DNA from: a virus
IMG/VR virus record: IMGVR_UViG_3300008807_000868
Coordinates: 1-5,911 of that record
Length of the DNA stretch: 5,911 nucleotides
Strand: one strand, 5' to 3'
Positions 777 through 5,911 of this stretch are shown in pieces (within the stretch, counting starts at the first letter, position 1; each line of letters starts with the position of its first letter). The position numbers were made by a program, and so were the translations under genes. The notes beneath the pieces were generated by a model that saw only the letters and a program-made list of their open reading frames with translations, was not told the DNA's origin and ran no database searches.

Positions 777-1271
777 ATGGGACGTTTCGTGATGGGCGGC
801 TTGGCCGATTGGGAGCCGCTCGCCGTCGGCGAGCTTCTCGATTTCCGCGTTGTCGGGAATTTTCGGGCGGTCGCCTTTGACTTGATCGCCGACCGTCAGG
901 TCGCGGTCTATGCCGTGTCCCCGGTTCTCGGGGAACGGCTGGTTGCGGTCGGTTTCGGCCTCATGGCCGTTTCCTTCTCCGCGTCGGAGGACTGCGCCGT
1001 GAGCGTGGTTGGTGATCCCGATGCCGCGATCTATGTTCGCGGGCGTGTCAAGACGCAGTTGATGCCCGAGAGCGGCGATGCGTCCTTCACGCGCATCGAG
1101 CCGCGGCAGACGGGCACGAGTGATGAGGTCCGGCGCATGATGGTCATCATGCGGCTCAATGCTGAACGGCGCGAGGCGGCGCTGCGCGGCGAGTTCGAGG
1201 CGCGGCTTGCCGCTCGGGAGGCTCCGCCGCCCGATGCAGTCGTCGAGCCTGAACCCCCGGCGGAGGCGTGA
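777..1271 (+). CDS. Hypothetical protein, 164 aa, of unknown role. The N-terminal ~100 aa look beta-rich, followed by a charged helical tail (RRMMVIMRLNAERREAALRGEFEARLAARE) and a Pro/Glu-rich end.
   Basis: Strong SD AAGGAGG at 765-771 lies 5 nt upstream of ATG 777, so the ORF-track start at 720 is probably too far upstream. GC3 is high throughout. The TGA stop at 1269-1271 overlaps the next gene's GTG (GTGA). Confidence 0.7.
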   Translation: MGRFVMGGLADWEPLAVGELLDFRVVGNFRAVAFDLIADRQVAVYAVSPVLGERLVAVGFGLMAVSFSASEDCAVSVVGDPDAAIYVRGRVKTQLMPESGDASFTRIEPRQTGTSDEVRRMMVIMRLNAERREAALRGEFEARLAAREAPPPDAVVEPEPPAEA

Positions 1272-1846
1272 AGGTCGACCTTCGGCGGCTGGTTCAACGG
1301 TTCACGCGGCGGGGGTTTGCTCCTCCTCCGTCGCGTGAGCTTGGCGGGGGGTCTCCCCTCGCTCGGCTGCCGCTCGATTATCGCGAGGCCGCGGCGCGGC
1401 TTCGCGATATGTCGGTGATCCGGTCCCAGTTGTTTCGGGACCGGGCGTTTCGCGTCTCGTTTGATGGCTGCCACCCCGACTTGATCCGCTTCAAGCGGGT
1501 GTTTCTGGCCGATCTGCATCGGGCCGGGATGCCGTTTTTCGTCTTTCAGGCGATGCGAAGTCGTGAGGATCAGGACCGGGCTTTTGCCTCCGGCGTGAGC
1601 AAGGCGAAGGGTGGGCAGTCTGCCCACAACTTCGGCATGGCGATTGATGTCGTTCATTTCCCGAGGTTTTGGGATTTGACGACAAGGGAATGGGACGTCA
1701 TCGGGGCAATCGGCGCGGATGTCTCGCGCCGGTTGTCTGTCCCTGTCGTTTGGGGCGGGTCGTGGGAATTCTACGATCCGGCCCATTGGGAATTGGCCGA
1801 TTGGAAGGTCAAGGCGGGGCTCGTCCCCGCAAAGGCGCGCGCGTAG
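1268..1846 (+). CDS. Zinc D,D- or L,D-peptidase of the M15 / LAS superfamily (VanY / phage T5 endolysin-like), a putative endolysin
   Basis: Zinc-ligand signature S-A-H120-N-F-G-M-A-I-D127 (H-x6-D, codons at 1625-1648) plus D-P-A-H173-W-E (H codon 1784-1786). Upstream segment MRSREDQDRAFASGVSKAKGGQS is typical of M15_3/M15_4 domains. The GTG start at 1268 overlaps the upstream stop (GTGA). ATG 1409 (M48) is an alternative start that keeps the whole catalytic domain. TAG stop at 1844-1846. Confidence 0.85.
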   Translation: MKVDLRRLVQRFTRRGFAPPPSRELGGGSPLARLPLDYREAAARLRDMSVIRSQLFRDRAFRVSFDGCHPDLIRFKRVFLADLHRAGMPFFVFQAMRSREDQDRAFASGVSKAKGGQSAHNFGMAIDVVHFPRFWDLTTREWDVIGAIGADVSRRLSVPVVWGGSWEFYDPAHWELADWKVKAGLVPAKARA

Positions 1847-1864
1847 GTTTATCCTACGCGCGCG
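1836..1864 (+). other. Perfect 12-bp GC-rich stem-loop spanning the peptidase stop codon, in the leader of the Rep gene
   Basis: 1836-1847 (cgcgcgcgtagg) pairs perfectly with 1853-1864 (cctacgcgcgcg), leaving a 5-nt loop tttat. No clean T-tract follows (tcacgtgcgcgcttctt), so it is not a canonical intrinsic terminator. Confidence 0.6.
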
Positions 1865-1922
1865 TCACGTGCGCGCTTCTTGGTCAACTATGCGTTTAGT
1901 GACACCACCCCGGAGGCGGAAG

Positions 1923-2699
1923 ATGTGCCTTGAGCCTGTGAAGCTGAAAGATGGATCGCTCGTAGCGTGTCGTGGGTGCCGGGTTTGCCGGGATAACCGC
2001 GTGAACGATTATGTCGGTCGTTGCTTGGCTGAGGCGAAGGTTTCGGACGGGGTGGTGGCGGTAACGCTTACTTATCGCGGCGATGGGTTGGATACGGTCC
2101 TCTTGGACTATTCTGACGTGCAGAAGTTCTTGAAGAGGCTTCGGAAGGCTTATTCGGTGCGATATATTGTTGCCGGGGAGTATGGCGCCAAGAAGGGGCG
2201 TGCCCATTGGCACTGCATCCTGTTCTTCAAGGGCGCCGTTCCCCCGGTTTCTTTCGACCGAAATTTTATGTGGTCGTTCTGGCCGCATGGTTTCTCGTAT
2301 TTCCAGCGGCCGGATTATGGCGGTTTCGCCTATGTTTTGAAGTATCTCCTGAAGGGCTCGCCCGAGGGGTATTCCAAGCGGTTTCAGCTTTCTAAGAAGC
2401 CTCCGCTTGGTCTCGTCTATCTGTCGTCGGTCATTGATGAGATGATCGACCGGGGCATTCCGCTTGCGGATTGGTCCTATAGGTTCGCAGATGTGAAGGA
2501 CCGGCAAGGCCGTGTCCGTGAGTTCTTCATTCCTCGCGGTCGCGTTCGCGACTTGGTGATGGATAGGTATTGGTCGGGCTGGATAGCCCGTTACGGCTCT
2601 TGGCCACCTTCGACGCCTGCCGTAGATGACTACAAGTCATCGCTCGGCGTCGATGATGATTTGTCTCTGGGAGGCTTTGATGGCGAGCAAGAGATTTAA
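1923..2699 (+). CDS. Rolling-circle replication initiation protein (HUH endonuclease, Microviridae VP4 / gpA-like), 258 aa
   Basis: SD GGAGG at 1912-1916 lies 6 nt upstream of ATG 1923. The N-terminus MCLEPV...CRGCRVC is a Cys cluster typical of VP4. Motif I is VVAVTLTY (2052-2075), motif II is the HUH sequence HWHCILFF (2205-), and motif III is the catalytic Tyr motif YVLKYLLK (2331-). TAA stop at 2697-2699. The ORF-track extension back to 1719 overlaps the peptidase gene and has no SD. Confidence 0.92.
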   Translation: MCLEPVKLKDGSLVACRGCRVCRDNRVNDYVGRCLAEAKVSDGVVAVTLTYRGDGLDTVLLDYSDVQKFLKRLRKAYSVRYIVAGEYGAKKGRAHWHCILFFKGAVPPVSFDRNFMWSFWPHGFSYFQRPDYGGFAYVLKYLLKGSPEGYSKRFQLSKKPPLGLVYLSSVIDEMIDRGIPLADWSYRFADVKDRQGRVREFFIPRGRVRDLVMDRYWSGWIARYGSWPPSTPAVDDYKSSLGVDDDLSLGGFDGEQEI

Positions 2700-3129
2700 G
2701 CGGCAGCGTCGTCGTGAGATTGTCGAGGCGCGGTTTCAATCCGTCGCTTCGGCGGCGGGTCTTCCCGCGTCGCCTGGGCGATCCGCTGATCTGGGGGGTT
2801 CTCGGGGTGTCCCCGTCGAGCCGAAGCCGCTTCGAGCAAATGTTGCTCGTGTGGGTGCGTCGGGCCTCCGTGCCAGCGGCTCGTTGGTTGTTTCTGTGCC
2901 CTTGCGCTCTGGTGTGGGGGGTGTGGGGGTCTCTCCCCCTTCTCCTGCCCGGCGGCGTTCCGTTGCTGTTGTGGAGTCTTTGCCCGGGTCTCTCCGGTCG
3001 GGTGTTCTCGTCTCTGACAAGGTTTCCCCGCGCTTGACTCCTTCGTGCAAGGAACGTCCTTCTGGCCGGGCTGATGGTTCGGGCGCTGGCGGCGGTCCTC
3101 GCCGCTTCGTCCCGTGGTGCAAGGGGTAG
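2680..3129 (+). CDS. Very basic, low-complexity hypothetical protein, 149 aa. Possibly a DNA-binding or internal virion protein. Its coding status is uncertain.
   Basis: SD GGGAGG at 2669-2674 lies 5 nt upstream of ATG 2680, which overlaps the Rep 3' end by 20 nt. The N-terminus is Arg/Lys-rich (MASKRFKRQRRREIV) and the rest is Ser/Gly/Val/Pro/Arg-rich. The T-rich third positions resemble the Rep gene. The next ORF starts 3 nt after its TAG (3127-3129). Caveat: the region is nearly A-free, so every frame is open and ORF length alone is not evidence. Confidence 0.45.
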   Translation: MASKRFKRQRRREIVEARFQSVASAAGLPASPGRSADLGGSRGVPVEPKPLRANVARVGASGLRASGSLVVSVPLRSGVGGVGVSPPSPARRRSVAVVESLPGSLRSGVLVSDKVSPRLTPSCKERPSGRADGSGAGGGPRRFVPWCKG

Positions 3130-3132
3130 CTT

Positions 3133-3237
3133 ATGAATTTTTTCGGCGGTCTCGTGATCTTGGCGGTTGTCTTCGTCCTGTTCGTTGCGCTCGCTGTCCT
3201 CGTCGTGCGCATTGTCTGGAACGTGGGCCGCAAGTGA
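3133..3237 (+). CDS. 34-aa single-pass membrane peptide (MNFFGGLVILAVVFVLFVALAVLVVRIVWNVGRK), a candidate holin-like or membrane-active protein
   Basis: Not in the supplied ORF track, probably because it is too short. I translated it by hand: ATG 3133 to TGA 3235-3237. SD-like AAGGGG at 3121-3126 lies 6 nt upstream. An uninterrupted ~25-residue hydrophobic core is followed by a basic C-terminus. GC3 is roughly 75%, like the neighbouring genes. Confidence 0.55.
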   Translation: MNFFGGLVILAVVFVLFVALAVLVVRIVWNVGRK

Positions 3238-3241
3238 TCTC

Positions 3242-3323
3242 GCAAGGGGGCTAAGCTGCGGCGTCCCTCCCGAATGGTTCTTCACCATTCGGGGGGGATG
3301 CCTAGCGGCGAGCGCCCCCTTGC
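3242..3323 (+). other. Nested long stem-loop (10-bp outer stem plus 18-bp inner hairpin) in the major non-coding region. It is a candidate ssDNA structural element such as a complementary-strand priming site, an origin or a terminator.
   Basis: Outer stem: 3242-3251 gcaagggggc pairs perfectly with 3314-3323 gcccccttgc. Inner hairpin: 3261-3278 pairs with 3284-3301, giving 18 bp of which 16 are Watson-Crick and 2 are G-T (3268/3294 and 3263/3299). The perfect 10-bp core is cccgaatggt/accattcggg and the loop is tcttc (3279-3283). Confidence 0.7.
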
Positions 3324-3503
3324 TAGGGCAGTCAAGGGTTCCCGCAGGCCACCCGGAGCCACGCGCAGCCCGCAGGGCGAGCATGGCGAGGATGGCCGAG
3401 GACAACCCTTGATGGCCCGTCTTCTTCTCTCGTTTTCGCATTATGCGAACGTGAGGTGTGTTTCAGGATTGGGCTCTAGCTGTTGTGGTCGTCCTGTTGC
3501 GTG

Positions 3504-3581
3504 TTCGCAACATTTCGGCGCTGCCGCTAGATTTTGTGAAGCTCGCGGCGGTTTTACACTTTACCGATTATCGGATATGTG
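3504..3581 (+). promoter_or_regulatory. Least GC-rich patch of the genome, with two weak sigma70-like promoter candidates upstream of the 3623..766 gene block
   Basis: Candidate 1 is TTCGCA (3504-3509), an 18-nt spacer, then TAGATT (3528-3533). Candidate 2 is TTTACA (3553-3558), a 17-nt spacer, then TATGTG (3576-3581). The patch also holds the palindrome CCGAT-T-ATCGG (3564-3574). These are pattern matches only, and host promoter rules are unknown. Confidence 0.2.
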
Positions 3582-3622
3582 CCTTTGATTTCTCCGTGGG
3601 GCGTGTCGCTCCCGGAGAGGTC

Positions 3623-3757
3623 ATGATGTCCAAGACTGTTCTTCTCGCGATCCTGTCGCGATTTGCCCCTGTTCTGCTCGGCGTCGTCGGCGGCCTCGTG
3701 GCCACCACGTGGCCGGTTGTGTTCGGTGCGTTCTGCACCGCCGGGTCGTCGTTGTGA
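3623..3757 (+). CDS. 44-aa hydrophobic, Gly-rich membrane peptide (MMSKTVLLAILSRFAPVLLGVVGGLVATTWPVVFGAFCTAGSSL)
   Basis: SD GGAGAGG at 3614-3620 sits directly upstream of tandem ATGs at 3623 and 3626. GC3 rises sharply from this point compared with the upstream part of the 3458..3757 track ORF. There are one long or two short hydrophobic segments. The TGA stop at 3755-3757 overlaps the next GTG. The 99-aa version starting at GTG 3458 is possible but has poor SD spacing. Confidence 0.6.
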   Translation: MMSKTVLLAILSRFAPVLLGVVGGLVATTWPVVFGAFCTAGSSL

Positions 3758-3999
3758 GGTCGCAGCGCGACCGCGAGCCCGTCGCATCCCTCGCGGATGC
3801 GATTGTCTGGCTTTGGAGCTACTCCAAGCCGGAAGACTGGCTCGACGGTGACCAGCCGATGCCGCTTGAGGCTCTGCTCGTCGCCGACATGTTCTGGCTC
3901 AATGAGCGCGATCTGCGCGCCACCATGGCGCGCGAGTGGCGCTCTGTTCTGACGGGAGCGCGGCAGGGCGCCCGCCGTAGCTTCGGCGAGGCGGCGTGA
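3754..3999 (+). CDS. Hypothetical acidic protein, ~81 aa (...SLADAIVWLWSYSKPEDWLDGDQPMPLEALLVADMFWLNERDLRATMAREW...). Its start is uncertain.
   Basis: GC3 is very high, roughly 85% by eye, which indicates real coding. GTG 3754 overlaps the upstream TGA (GTGA), the same arrangement as at 1268. The TGA stop at 3997-3999 overlaps the pilot gene ATG (TGATG). The ORF-track start at GTG 3709 is an alternative, and neither start has a clear SD. Confidence 0.55.
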   Translation: MRSQRDREPVASLADAIVWLWSYSKPEDWLDGDQPMPLEALLVADMFWLNERDLRATMAREWRSVLTGARQGARRSFGEAA

Positions 4000-4877
4000 T
4001 GCCCGGCTTTTTGGGCGGCCTTCTCGGTGGCGTCGGGCGGTTGGTTTCGTCCGTCGCCCCCTCCTTGGTTGGTGGTATGTTCGGCCTCGCGCAGCAGCGT
4101 GAGGCGAACAAGGGCACCGATCTTGTCCAGCTTCGCGACTCGGCTTTGCGGGCTGGTTTTAACCCGTTGACGGTTCTGACCGCGACGGGTGGCGCCGGGT
4201 TCCAGCGGAATTTCTCGCCCGATTTGGCATCCGGCGCCTTCGTCGCCGATGCCGTCGCGCGTGGTCTGGATACGGTGTTCAATCGTCCTTCGGTTGATCG
4301 CGCTGCCGAGCAGATCAGACAGAGCCAGTTCCGCCGCGATGCGGCGGCGGTCTCGGCGGTCAATCGGCTGCCGCGACCGTTCGGCTATTCGCTGACCTCC
4401 GAGGTCGCCGGCGGCGGCGGTACAGGCGCCGTATCGCCGGCTTTGTCCGGTGTTTTCAGCCCGAGGCCTGTTTCTCGTCCCGTGACGGTCCACGATTACG
4501 CGACGGGGCGCGATATGAGCATTCCCTCGCGTGTGGCCGAGCGGCTGGGTCTTTCTAATGGAGACGCCATCATTGCCGAGGACTTCGAGGCTATCGGTGG
4601 TGACCTTGCGGGTGAGGCTCAGGGTCTGATTGGCGCCGTTGGCAGCGGCGGTTCGTTCGGGCTTCGCACCAACCCGCGCAGTGCGGACGACGCCCCTTGG
4701 GCTCTTGCCGATGGCGCGCGTTCTCTGGTGACTGGGCGGGCGCCGGGTGCTTCGTCCGGTTCGTCGTCCGGTCGCGATCCGTGGCAGCGTCCCGCCGGAT
4801 GGCGTGGTTTCGCGGAGGGACTGTTCTTTCCGTTTGGTTTGACGCCCGCCCTCGCTCGTGGGTGGCGTCCGTGGTGA
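3999..4877 (+). CDS. DNA pilot / minor capsid protein (Microviridae VP2 / H-like), 292 aa
   Basis: Gly-rich hydrophobic N-terminus MPGFLGGLLGGVGRLVSSVAPSLVGGMFG, followed by LRAGFNPL (4146-4169), which matches the AG(L/I/F)NP motif I recall from gokushovirus VP2 proteins. The rest is long, Gly/Ser/Ala-rich and low in complexity. The gene sits immediately upstream of the capsid gene. ATG 3999 overlaps the upstream stop, and GTG 3996 is an alternative start. TGA stop at 4875-4877. Confidence 0.7.
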   Translation: MPGFLGGLLGGVGRLVSSVAPSLVGGMFGLAQQREANKGTDLVQLRDSALRAGFNPLTVLTATGGAGFQRNFSPDLASGAFVADAVARGLDTVFNRPSVDRAAEQIRQSQFRRDAAAVSAVNRLPRPFGYSLTSEVAGGGGTGAVSPALSGVFSPRPVSRPVTVHDYATGRDMSIPSRVAERLGLSNGDAIIAEDFEAIGGDLAGEAQGLIGAVGSGGSFGLRTNPRSADDAPWALADGARSLVTGRAPGASSGSSSGRDPWQRPAGWRGFAEGLFFPFGLTPALARGWRPW

Positions 4878-4961: not shown

Positions 4962-5911
4962 ATGAAGGTTGTCGAAAGTATCTCGGCTGAGCCGATCCCG
5001 GTGCAGAAGTCGGTCAGGGGCGATGAAATCCGCTCCCTGACGACGTGCTTTGCCGGGAAGATCGTGCCGGTGGCCTATATCCCCCTGCTCCGTGAGGACA
5101 GGGTTTCGAGCGGGCGTCTGCGGATGCGCTTGCAGATGGCCGAGACGGTGCATCCCTTGATGAACGCGGTGAACGTCACGGCCTATGTCCATTTCATCCC
5201 GTTCCTCGCGTTCGAGCGGTTCTCGGGTATGGACAGCCTGAACAAGTCCTATCAGGGCGTGAAGGAGCGCGCAGCCGATGCGGCGCCGGTCCCGTTCGTC
5301 ACGACCATCAACTTCGACAAGGCCGCCGAGTTCTGGAAGACGCTCGGTGTCCATTGGAAGCAGGGGCAGCCGATCAATGCGGCTTTGGTCGAGGCCTACA
5401 ATGTCCTCGTGAACTTCCGCCGGGCGGCGCGGTCGGATCGGCTCGCGCGTCGGACGCTGACCGATACGACGCTTGCGGCGGCATTCTGGAGGAACCCCAA
5501 TCTCTGGCACATCGTTCCCGATTTCGATCAGGCCGCGATCGATGGTGAGGTCGATTTGGTCCTTCCTCCGACTCAGCTTCCGGTGAAGGGCATTGGGCTG
5601 AATGTGACCGGGCAGACGGCCGCGGCGGCCACTACCTTCCGTGAGACCGGGGGCGCTGCCGGTGTTACGGCCAATGCGTGGACGTCTCAGAGCTACGCGG
5701 GTTCTATTGTCATCAAACAGGGCAGCGGTAACTTCCCCGGTATCTTCGCCGAGTTGGCAAGTACCGGCGTGAAGCTGTCGCTCGCGAATATCGAGCTAGC
5801 CAAGCAGACCGCGGCCTTTGCGCGGATGCGGGAGCAATATCAGGGCCTCGATGATGACCATCTGATTGACCTCCTGATGGAGGGCATCAGGGTGCCCGAA
5901 GAGGCGATGAA
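4962..5911 (+). CDS. Microviridae major capsid protein (VP1 / F-like), N-terminal part. It is open at the window end and continues at nt 2 after circularisation.
   Basis: SD GGAGG at 4950-4954 lies 7 nt upstream of ATG 4962. I translated it by hand with no stop before the window end. The N-terminal pattern ...AGKIVPVAYIPLLREDRVSSGRLRMRLQMAETVHPLMNAVNVTAYVHFIPFLAFERF matches the conserved G-x-IVP...P...V-x-V....F-x-P architecture of microvirus capsid proteins. The last 99 nt duplicate nt 1-99. Confidence 0.9.
   Translation, partial: MKVVESISAEPIPVQKSVRGDEIRSLTTCFAGKIVPVAYIPLLREDRVSSGRLRMRLQMAETVHPLMNAVNVTAYVHFIPFLAFERFSGMDSLNKSYQGVKERAADAAPVPFVTTINFDKAAEFWKTLGVHWKQGQPINAALVEAYNVLVNFRRAARSDRLARRTLTDTTLAAAFWRNPNLWHIVPDFDQAAIDGEVDLVLPPTQLPVKGIGLNVTGQTAAAATTFRETGGAAGVTANAWTSQSYAGSIVIKQGSGNFPGIFAELASTGVKLSLANIELAKQTAAFARMREQYQGLDDDHLIDLLMEGIRVPEEAM
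5813..5911. repeat. Right copy of the exact 99-nt terminal direct repeat (circularisation overlap)
   Basis: Identical to nt 1-99. Confidence 0.95.

Follow-up and report, generated by a model that had tools for sequence, protein, structure and literature searches.

By the textbook account, microviruses lyse their hosts with one protein that blocks cell-wall synthesis (phiX174 E), and they do so without a wall-degrading enzyme. In the IMG/VR virus record IMGVR_UViG_3300008807_000868, of which a stretch of 5,911 nt was analysed (this whole stretch is called the window below), an open reading frame (ORF) on the + strand at 1268..1846 (192 aa, GTG 1268 to TAG 1844-1846) had been described in a first-pass annotation as an M15/LAS zinc peptidase of the T5 endolysin kind that lacks an export signal. 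The locus raises the question of what such an enzyme does in a microvirus, and of how it would reach the murein. The answer that we favour, with a probability of roughly 0.6, is that the ORF encodes a soluble, zinc-dependent LAS/M15 endolysin of a microvirus resembling Rhodobacter phage Ebor (proposed Tainavirinae), and that this endolysin depends on a holin.

The assignment to the M15/LAS peptidases of the T5/ChiX endolysin type was confirmed by profile, structure and fold comparisons. The ORF matched Pfam Peptidase_M15_4 (PF13539, clan Peptidase_MD) with an E value of 1.9e-6 and 28.8 bits, above the cut-off of 25, and PHROG 465 ('endolysin') with an E value of 2.7e-17, while the Pfam VanY profile, at 16.9 bits (E 0.0056), stayed under its cut-off. 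A single-sequence search of the PDB returned the RB49 peptidase (23ri), LysECD7 (8q2g), LysB4 (6akv), ChiX (5opz) and Ply500 (2vo9) at E values of 9e-12 to 1.6e-8; a profile built from 40 homologues recovered those five enzymes at 2e-21 to 3.4e-12, with one carboxypeptidase (YodJ) far behind at 5e-4. An AlphaFold model computed on the homologue alignment (predicted local distance difference test, pLDDT, 93; predicted template modelling score, pTM, 0.80) has the LAS fold, a central antiparallel sheet against helices, and in Foldseek it matched 8q2g, 5opz, 2vo9 and 6akv with a probability of 1.00 and target-normalised TM-scores of 0.63-0.74 (0.72-0.74 when normalised to LysECD7 and ChiX). The carboxypeptidases VanXY, LdcB and VanY appeared in the same search at E values of 3e-4 and weaker, with TM-scores of 0.39-0.45 and root-mean-square deviations (rmsd) of 5-8 A, and Hedgehog N-terminal domains stood lower in the list, as expected for the LAS group.

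The active site can be read from the alignments. Both motifs singled out by the first-pass annotation are present at the residues it gave: S118-A-H120-NFGMAI-D127 (1619..1648, + strand), which holds the first two zinc-ligand positions, and D170-P-A-H173-W-E175 (1775..1792, + strand), with a predicted catalytic aspartate and the third ligand position. To these the comparison adds Arg97 (1556..1558, + strand), a predicted active-site arginine that is invariant in the family. In Serratia marcescens ChiX the zinc ligands are His68, Asp75 and His123, the catalytic acid/base is Asp120, and Arg47 lies in the site (PMC5778951). All five of these residues align with the window enzyme, HMMER pairing R97, H120, D127, D170 and H173 with R47, H68, D75, D120 and H123, respectively. 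Across the 40-homologue alignment R97, Q102, G116, S118, H120, A125, D127, D170 and H173 are invariant. The earlier proposal that H120, D127 and H173 bind the metal is thus supported by their conservation and by their alignment with the ChiX ligands, as is the role of D170 as the predicted catalytic aspartate.

That the enzyme degrades murein is nearly certain on these grounds. Its preference for the L-Ala-D-Glu bond of the stem peptide is likely by analogy, because every strong relative (E <= 1e-8) is of that type, which defines the M15C subgroup (T5, ChiX, Ply500); this specificity has been demonstrated for ChiX (PMC5778951), and the other matched structures are called L-Ala-D-Glu peptidases by their depositors.

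Export signals were assessed by Kyte-Doolittle hydropathy. The highest 19-residue mean in the protein is 1.05, at residue 144 in the catalytic core, so that no segment reaches 1.6, and every segment in the first 60 residues averages 0 or less. The family is alike in this respect: the highest N-terminal 15-residue mean is 1.59, and none of 75 peptidase ORFs reaches 1.8. An arginine pair is present at residues 6-7, but no hydrophobic h-region follows it, and a Tat signal was rejected. The claim that the enzyme has neither signal nor signal-anchor-release (SAR) segment therefore holds on the hydropathy test, which gave no indication of a Sec, Tat, lipoprotein or SAR signal.

Two N-termini had been considered possible, at GTG 1268 and at ATG 1409, and of these only the first stands. 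Comparison places the real start at GTG 1268, because homologues from independent contigs and prophages (MLIDIRKLFQRFMRRG, MQVDFRRVVQRLLRR, MLDLRRIAQRFIRRG, MMQHIRRIIQRFIRRG and MLKIDPRRLVQRFDRLFRR) begin with an N-terminal peptide like that of the window enzyme (MKVDLRRLVQRFTRRG). GTG 1268 overlaps the stop codon of the preceding gene, ORFX, as GTGA, and the sole Shine-Dalgarno-like sequence, GGAGG, ends 1 base short of the start codon, a spacing too tight for initiation there to be independent. Overlaps of 4-29 nt between the two genes, seen in the window and in six relatives with annotated or called genes, fit this, and the peptidase is likely expressed by translational coupling to ORFX.

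ORFX itself (777-1271, + strand, 164 aa from ATG 777) is a conserved gene in the interval between the major capsid protein (MCP) gene and the peptidase, with homologues detected by tblastn in 52 of 84 loci, invariably between those two genes. It matched no Pfam or PHROG family, a word-index search returned no homologues, and its single-sequence AlphaFold model (pLDDT 42) was unusable; it may be a VP3-like scaffolding protein.

Starting at GTG 1268, the protein has an N-terminal extension (residues 1-64, 1268..1459, + strand) with no counterpart in the T5/ChiX-type enzymes of ~130 aa. A cationic amphipathic helix at residues 4-16 (DLRRLVQRFTRRG) leads, through a Pro/Gly linker (17-29), into a small helical subdomain (30-60), and the AlphaFold model places helices at residues 5-16 and 30-60, with a linker pLDDT of 67. 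The subdomain carries a motif, LP-x-(T/D)(H/Y)-x-x-AA, that is kept through the whole microviral family, and 13 non-microviral genomic matches align only from residue 55 or later. The helix motif, RR-x2-QRF-x-RR, occurs in about one third of the family and is strongly kept in the subclade to which the window belongs.

On the favoured reading the enzyme would be made late, its translation coupled to that of ORFX just behind the capsid gene, and, lacking a signal or SAR sequence, it would build up in the cytoplasm in folded form. A small phage membrane protein, one or both of the two ORFs that we call TM44 and TM34, would permeabilise the inner membrane and so let the enzyme reach the murein; in relatives from other clades that part would be taken by a ~60-aa Phage_holin_10-like protein at the equivalent position. 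Cleavage of the L-Ala-D-Glu bond of the stem peptide would then detach the cross-links and the cell would burst. More speculatively, the cationic N-terminal helix may take on disruption of the outer membrane, since no spanin-like gene is apparent in the ORF list of the window, or it may instead serve as a dock for the enzyme on membrane, murein, DNA or capsid. We consider it quite probable that the peptidase acts in lysis at the end of infection, and the chances about even that its passage to the periplasm requires a phage membrane protein, in the way that the T5 endolysin needs its holin and ChiX needs ChiW.

The lysis role draws on the position of the gene. The order MCP-(ORFX)-peptidase-Rep was constant in all 84 viral loci first examined and in 28 prophages, and in Ebor an unrelated hydrolase with proven murein-degrading activity, Gp7, occupies the equivalent position (PMC11980548). 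One genomic slot is thus filled by unrelated hydrolases in related phages, which is typical behaviour for an endolysin module. Gp7 (3581-4021 of our locus L186), which the authors of PMC11980548 describe as the first wall hydrolase of a single-stranded DNA (ssDNA) phage to be verified by experiment, is the only microviral one with enzymatic tests behind it. We considered it as an experimentally verified homologue of the window peptidase and rejected it as unrelated, the hhalign probability for a relationship to M15 being 0.16%. It has no Pfam-A match at E <= 0.1; by eye it shows T7-lysozyme-like amidase motifs (…GYH…HNDYAAKLCPG…), in agreement with the HHpred match reported in PMC11980548. A divergent amidase thus appears to fill, in Ebor, the position that M15 takes in the window.

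Two strong candidates for the membrane protein emerged when the window was scanned for hydrophobic ORFs, both lying in the interval between Rep and the pilot protein gene VP2. TM44 (3623-3757, + strand, MMSKTVLLAILSRFAPVLLGVVGGLVATTWPVVFGAFCTAGSSL) is predicted to be a 44-aa single-pass membrane protein and is preceded by a Shine-Dalgarno-like GGAGAGG at 3614-3620. TM34 (3133-3237, + strand, MNFFGGLVILAVVFVLFVALAVLVVRIVWNVGRK), with 34 aa, is very hydrophobic (Kyte-Doolittle mean 3.58), also single-pass, has a basic C-terminal tail and is preceded by AGGGG 6 nt upstream of its ATG. The Shine-Dalgarno-like sequences of both ORFs are properly spaced. Both are kept in the closest relatives, and homologues of TM34 lie likewise after the Gp10-like gene in loci L085, L086, L087, L089 and L145. 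TM44 is related to Gp1 of Ebor, a 45-aa 'putative membrane protein' (hhalign probability 97.6%, E 3.5e-12), and Gp1 is the sole predicted membrane protein besides VP2 in that phage, which carries a signal-less hydrolase. We regard TM44 as the leading holin candidate and TM34 as the second.

Small membrane ORFs, one or two, were found in 53 of the 54 loci with room upstream of VP2, and profile HMMs sorted them into four families. Members of famA, just upstream of VP2, have 60-67 aa, two hydrophobic segments, a basic tail and the motif KP..RR.GT...DL..SH..R; they occur in CRPss-151 (L002:1434-1619), RHph_X92 (L004:4781-4981), RHph_TM24 (L003:1881-2126) and ~90 more loci, are annotated 'hypothetical' in the isolates, and are absent from the window. 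The 28-32-aa famB2 ORFs co-occur with famA in 63 loci; in CRPss-151 (L002:1616-1711, where the ORF is unannotated) and 73 other loci they overlap the end of famA and abut VP2, as in the example MRKHFTDIAHGLVAGTIISVVVFGPTVLGWY. TM44 belongs to famB1 (36-50 aa, one helix, with a P-x2-H-x-A-F-C tail whose Pro and Cys are invariant) and TM34 to famA2 (31-34 aa, one ORF possibly reaching 56 aa from an upstream start, with one helix and a basic tail).

Thirteen of 35 non-redundant famA proteins match PF23987, Phage_holin_10 ('Bacteriophage holin Pam3 gp28 family'), with a best E value of 8.4e-6; the scores inspected lie below the 27-bit cut-off, and the matches displayed in full span most of the 52-position profile. 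From these matches famA is likely a holin, so far unrecognised, of microviruses that carry the peptidase. Of 152 loci with the peptidase, famA is present in 94 and famB1 in 18, with no locus having the two together; the 39 that lack both families are for the most part truncated contigs or bacterial genes that are not viral.

Several observations weigh against a holin-dependent endolysin or limit the case for it. Neither TM34 nor TM44 matches a holin family, none to PF23987 at E <= 1, and 15 members of the TM44 family likewise have no PF23987 match. Homology between famB1 and famA is not claimed, their hhalign probability being 10%, and the mutual exclusion of the two families may reflect phylogeny rather than a shared function. 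At 34-44 aa the two ORFs are, to our knowledge, smaller than characterised holins, and their job could instead be to assist the neighbouring VP2 in DNA delivery, or to bring about superinfection exclusion. The sole informative peptidase-less genome, CRPss-154 (L090), has neither the peptidase nor any of the four membrane-ORF families, its peptidase slot being filled by a 191-aa ORF (5145-5720) that is unrelated to M15 and has no Pfam match. Its capsid protein, used alone as a query for peptidase-less relatives, found nothing; a scan with a capsid alignment yielded 80 loci, almost all peptidase-positive, and of three apparent negatives L083 proved, by tblastn, to have the peptidase, while the contig of L101 breaks off right at the peptidase slot. 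This leaves CRPss-154 as the one genome in which loss of the membrane ORFs could be compared with loss of the peptidase. Finally, trace amounts of the Ebor hydrolase were found in virions (PMC11980548).

A bolder form of the favoured reading, which we put forward as tentative and rather doubtful, is that TM44 (related to Gp1), TM34 or both represent a new and unusually small class of holin which, with an M15 endolysin whose helix supplies membrane targeting or replaces spanins in outer-membrane disruption, makes up a complete minimal Gram-negative lysis system of less than 1 kb of coding sequence in two loci. The TM44/Gp1 holin would then be common to microviruses with unrelated endolysins, M15 here and an amidase-like enzyme in Ebor.

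The alternative that survives best, though we think it unlikely, makes the endolysin independent of a holin: the cationic helix would itself allow the enzyme to cross or disturb the inner membrane, or would replace spanins after wall cleavage, and the small membrane ORFs would do some other job. The helix has properties that would suit it to this part, with a hydrophobic moment of 0.7-0.79, net positive charge and a pLDDT of 87-89 in the model; its motif is retained by prophages L145, L146 and L151 along with the rest of the window subclade; the ORF list offers no spanin-like gene; and in phage phiKT a cationic peptide, gp28, replaces spanins (bioRxiv 10.1101/515445). However, two thirds or so of the family do without the motif, the Rhizobium members and many marine ones starting later, and so specific a pattern suggests a defined binding partner over generic membrane activity.

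Somewhat less probable is a role at entry, raised as an alternative in the first-pass annotation, in which a few packaged copies of the enzyme, held perhaps through the basic N-terminus on ssDNA or the capsid interior, would open the murein locally when the genome is delivered. The lytic enzymes of phages phi6 (P5) and PRD1 work as virion-borne entry enzymes, and model microviruses deliver their DNA with the pilot protein alone, which counts against such a need here. The gene lies within the structural block and is coupled to ORFX, its product has a basic N-terminus, and the unrelated hydrolase in the equivalent slot of Ebor was detected in purified virions (PMC11980548); yet that hydrolase was present there at no more than trace level and gave no visible density (PMC11980548), some relatives lack the gene altogether, subgroups 6 and 7 of the 232 published Occultatumvirinae genomes being peptidase-less (PMC11499846), and an entry role is in any case compatible with one in lysis.

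Less probable again is lysis by a single gene, with TM34 or TM44 acting as an E-like inhibitor of wall synthesis or as a membrane disruptor and the peptidase serving as an accessory that speeds lysis, widens the range of hosts or growth phases, or remodels murein. Single-gene lysis is a known strategy of small phages, as in phiX174 E and the Sgl proteins of ssRNA phages (PMC12596118), both TM34 and TM44 show conservation and resemble the Sgl proteins in size, and it was lysis of a host culture that led to the isolation of CRPss-154, a phage that has no peptidase (PMC11499846). On the other side, TM34 and TM44 have no homology to E or to any lysis family, CRPss-154 also lacks both small-ORF families, and the peptidase is retained almost universally despite a strong constraint on genome size. 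Very improbable is a carboxypeptidase of the VanY or LdcB type (D,D- or L,D-specific), which would trim stem peptides and not act as a lytic endopeptidase. This idea could appeal to the weak VanY match, to the VanXY and LdcB structures in the fold search and to the Pfam description of M15_4 as a D-Ala-D-Ala carboxypeptidase family. Against it, VanY falls below its cut-off, the carboxypeptidase structures superpose poorly, and the strong matches by sequence, profile and fold are without exception L-Ala-D-Glu endopeptidases from phages or from the ChiX system.

Comparison with known systems shows what the holin-dependent endolysin that we favour has in common with others. The closest are the M15 enzymes of alphaproteobacterial microviruses (CRPss-151/152/153/155/251, RHph_TM24, X92, N25, ICBM5 and those from tortoise, bat and rat), which are homologous at 30-48% identity by tblastn and have a similar length (~165-190 aa), an N-terminal extension, the same slot and the overlap with the upstream ORF. 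The best annotated phage match to the window enzyme is just 48% identical, however, and unlike most relatives the window subclade has the RR-x2-QRF-x-RR helix, and TM44/TM34 in place of the famA/famB2 pair. The T5-type enzymes (EndoT5, RB49 23ri, LysECD7 8q2g) share the LAS fold and the SxHxxGxAxD and DxxH motifs, and like the window enzyme they are single-domain, soluble and signal-less and come from phages of Gram-negative hosts; they are 31-33% identical to it, lack its ~64 extra N-terminal residues, and belong to large tailed phages with an annotated holin rather than to a 5.8-kb ssDNA phage. EndoT5 has calcium regulation.

ChiX, like the window enzyme, has no signal peptide, and its export depends on a small holin-like protein, ChiW (PMC5778951, PMC4259817), a need that a fused Sec signal bypasses (PMC5778951), but ChiX is a cellular, non-lytic secretion component and ChiW has three predicted transmembrane domains (PMC5778951) as against one in each of the window candidates. 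Ebor resembles the window in its complement of a Gp1-like protein (TM44), a Gp2-like protein, VP2, MCP, one or more ORFs without assigned function, a wall hydrolase, Rep and a Gp10-like protein; it differs in encoding a methylase and in lacking a TM34-like ORF. In human-gut Gokushovirinae and Alpavirinae a LAS-clan peptidase was likewise acquired by microviruses and proposed to be an endolysin (PMC3394797), but those M15_3 enzymes belong to PF08291 rather than PF13539, occur in phages of other host phyla and represent independent acquisitions (PMC3394797).

The gene is widespread. By tblastn the peptidase was found in 202 phage records, the best being rat, tortoise and bat faecal microviruses at no more than 48% identity. 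Among cultured phages the matches are Roseobacter phages CRPss-151/152/153/155/251, annotated 'M15 family metallopeptidase', Rhizobium RHph_* phages, annotated 'endolysin protein', and Sulfitobacter phage ICBM5. IMG/VR holds at least 136 relatives. A protein database gave 41 homologues besides the window protein, nearly all on contigs shorter than 9 kb and about half on contigs of 5.5-8.4 kb, with a precomputed PF13539 assignment on all but two (P0038 and P0039); the best metagenomic protein match is 51-55% identical. A scan of bacterial genomes, one per species, returned 41 matches, of which 28 are microvirus prophages with the MCP-ORFX-peptidase-Rep order, and every one of the 28 lies in Alphaproteobacteria (Paracoccaceae, Roseovarius, Albidovulum, Devosia, Mesorhizobium, Agrobacterium, Paracoccus, Rhodobacter and others). 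In Tortoise microvirus 70 (L001) the peptidase occupies 2193-2765, and GenBank annotates the C-terminal half only (2472-2765, 'hypothetical protein'); the peptidase gene is likewise broken up, into two or three coding-sequence features, in several records of tortoise and bat microviruses.

The peptidase gene is not new, but a documented feature of microviruses that infect Alphaproteobacteria, and the earlier remark that it is not unprecedented was correct and understated. M15_3 peptidases of gut microviruses were proposed as endolysins in 2012 (PMC3394797); mcp, rep and lys form the basic gene set of Rhizobium microviruses (PMC9512667); most Occultatumvirinae have an M15 metallopeptidase in the order VP2-VP1-peptidase-VP4 (PMC11499846); an M15 peptidase-related gene is present even in the 4.2-kb phage vB_RpoMi-Mini (PMC9865509); and a 'lysis protein' or 'endolysin' is near-core in the subfamilies that infect Alphaproteobacteria (PMC9753089, PMC9512667, PMC11499846, PMC9865509). 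The first-pass annotation had also described the running of an endolysin-based lysis system by such a phage as apparently uncharacterised, and in this it agrees with the searchable literature, in which we found no paper naming a holin or an export route for microviral M15 enzymes.

Marine and soil microviruses of Alphaproteobacteria, which are abundant, break the textbook lysis rule, and the window is one further example. The gene itself adds little to this; what is new here is the circular Ebor-like genome with a dif-like attP, the start codon and N-terminal extension of the peptidase, and the naming of holin candidates. The value lies in these named candidates for passage of the inner membrane and for the outer-membrane step, namely TM44, TM34, the Phage_holin_10-like 60-aa protein of cultured Roseobacter and Rhizobium microviruses, and the cationic N-terminal helix, and TM44 is related to a protein of a culturable model phage, Ebor. 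If the assignments are right, the system would be among the smallest holin-endolysin systems known, would offer compact parts for engineered lysis, and would allow better annotation of lysis genes in thousands of metagenomic microvirus genomes.

The rest of the window is in keeping with a complete microvirus genome. Because an exact 99-nt direct repeat stands at both of its ends (1-99 and 5813-5911), the window represents an assembled circular genome of 5,812 nt, on which every credible gene lies on the + strand. The MCP gene runs from ATG 4962 across the circle junction to 766 and is followed by ORFX, the peptidase gene and Rep (Pfam PF23343), and the pilot protein VP2 is encoded at 3996-4877. 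The order VP2, MCP, ORFX, peptidase, Rep agrees with the VP2-VP1-peptidase-VP4 order of PMC11499846, and the whole fits the one-strand, circular plan of ~5-6.6 kb of peptidase-bearing alphaproteobacterial microviruses (proposed Occultatumvirinae / Tainavirinae). NCBIfam gave no match for the peptidase, Rep, VP2, TM34 or TM44.

The long ORF of Rep (1719-2699) opens at ATG 1719 inside the peptidase gene, giving an overlap of 128 nt that is probably an artefact of ORF calling, because the conserved Rep N-terminus (MC-x-x-P..., here MCLEPVKL) starts at ATG 1923. Out of frame within Rep lies a 62-aa ORF with a TTG start (2207-2395) and a hydrophobic segment (Kyte-Doolittle mean 2.04); its placement recalls phiX174 gene E inside gene D, but the ORF is probably there by chance.

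Downstream of Rep, an Arg/Pro/Ser-rich ORF (2626-3129, + strand) has a C-terminus, GGGPRRFVPWCKG, that is kept in CRPss-151, RHph_X92, RHph_TM24, L088 and Gp10 of Ebor, a basic virion protein confirmed by mass spectrometry that ends in FVPWCK; the window ORF probably encodes an internal protein that neutralises DNA charge. TM34 follows, and then a non-coding stretch (3238-3622) up to TM44. Between TM44 and VP2, the ORF at 3709-3999 (+ strand) is homologous to Ebor Gp2, with a common ...WL...PED...DMFW... pattern, and to ORFs of prophages L145, L149 and L166-L172; its real start is probably downstream of 3709.

The non-coding stretch holds a dif-like XerCD attachment site (3551-3583), recognised only through comparison with the annotated attP of Ebor, to which 21 of 28 bases are identical. 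Its core, TTTACNGATTATNGGATNTGTGCC, matches the Ebor attP exactly, with 0 such matches expected in 200 shuffles, and the site lies ~40 nt upstream of TM44, just as the Ebor attP lies just upstream of the Gp1-like gene. Related dif motifs, with 2-4 core mismatches, flank the Rhodobacter capsulatus SP36 prophage (L172: 2084 and 8512), and one precedes the TM44-like ORF in L145 (2440). The generic dif pattern CGCATAA-N6-TTATG matched only inside ORFX, at a perfect 20-nt palindrome (CGCATGATGGTCATCATGCG, 1134-1153) that is not dif. The window phage is probably temperate. Its nearest prophage relatives are in a Paracoccaceae metagenome-assembled genome (47% identity for the peptidase, 53% for the MCP), Roseovarius and Albidovulum, and its GC content is 59-68% over most of the genome; the window probably represents a temperate, Ebor-like microvirus of Alphaproteobacteria with a host among the Rhodobacterales.

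Two structured elements remain to be mentioned. A 14-bp GC-rich hairpin (1834..1866, + strand; dG -22.5 kcal/mol, z -4.96) spans the peptidase stop codon, where the late genes give way to Rep, and a second stem of terminator-like form (1857-1876) comes after it. Strong hairpins stand at the equivalent place in three of nine relatives checked (L088, L002 and, more weakly, L089), and the hairpin could be a terminator, an mRNA stabiliser or an origin element. A 19-nt inverted repeat (3260-3302, 89% complementary, 5-nt loop) lies in the non-coding stretch after TM34.

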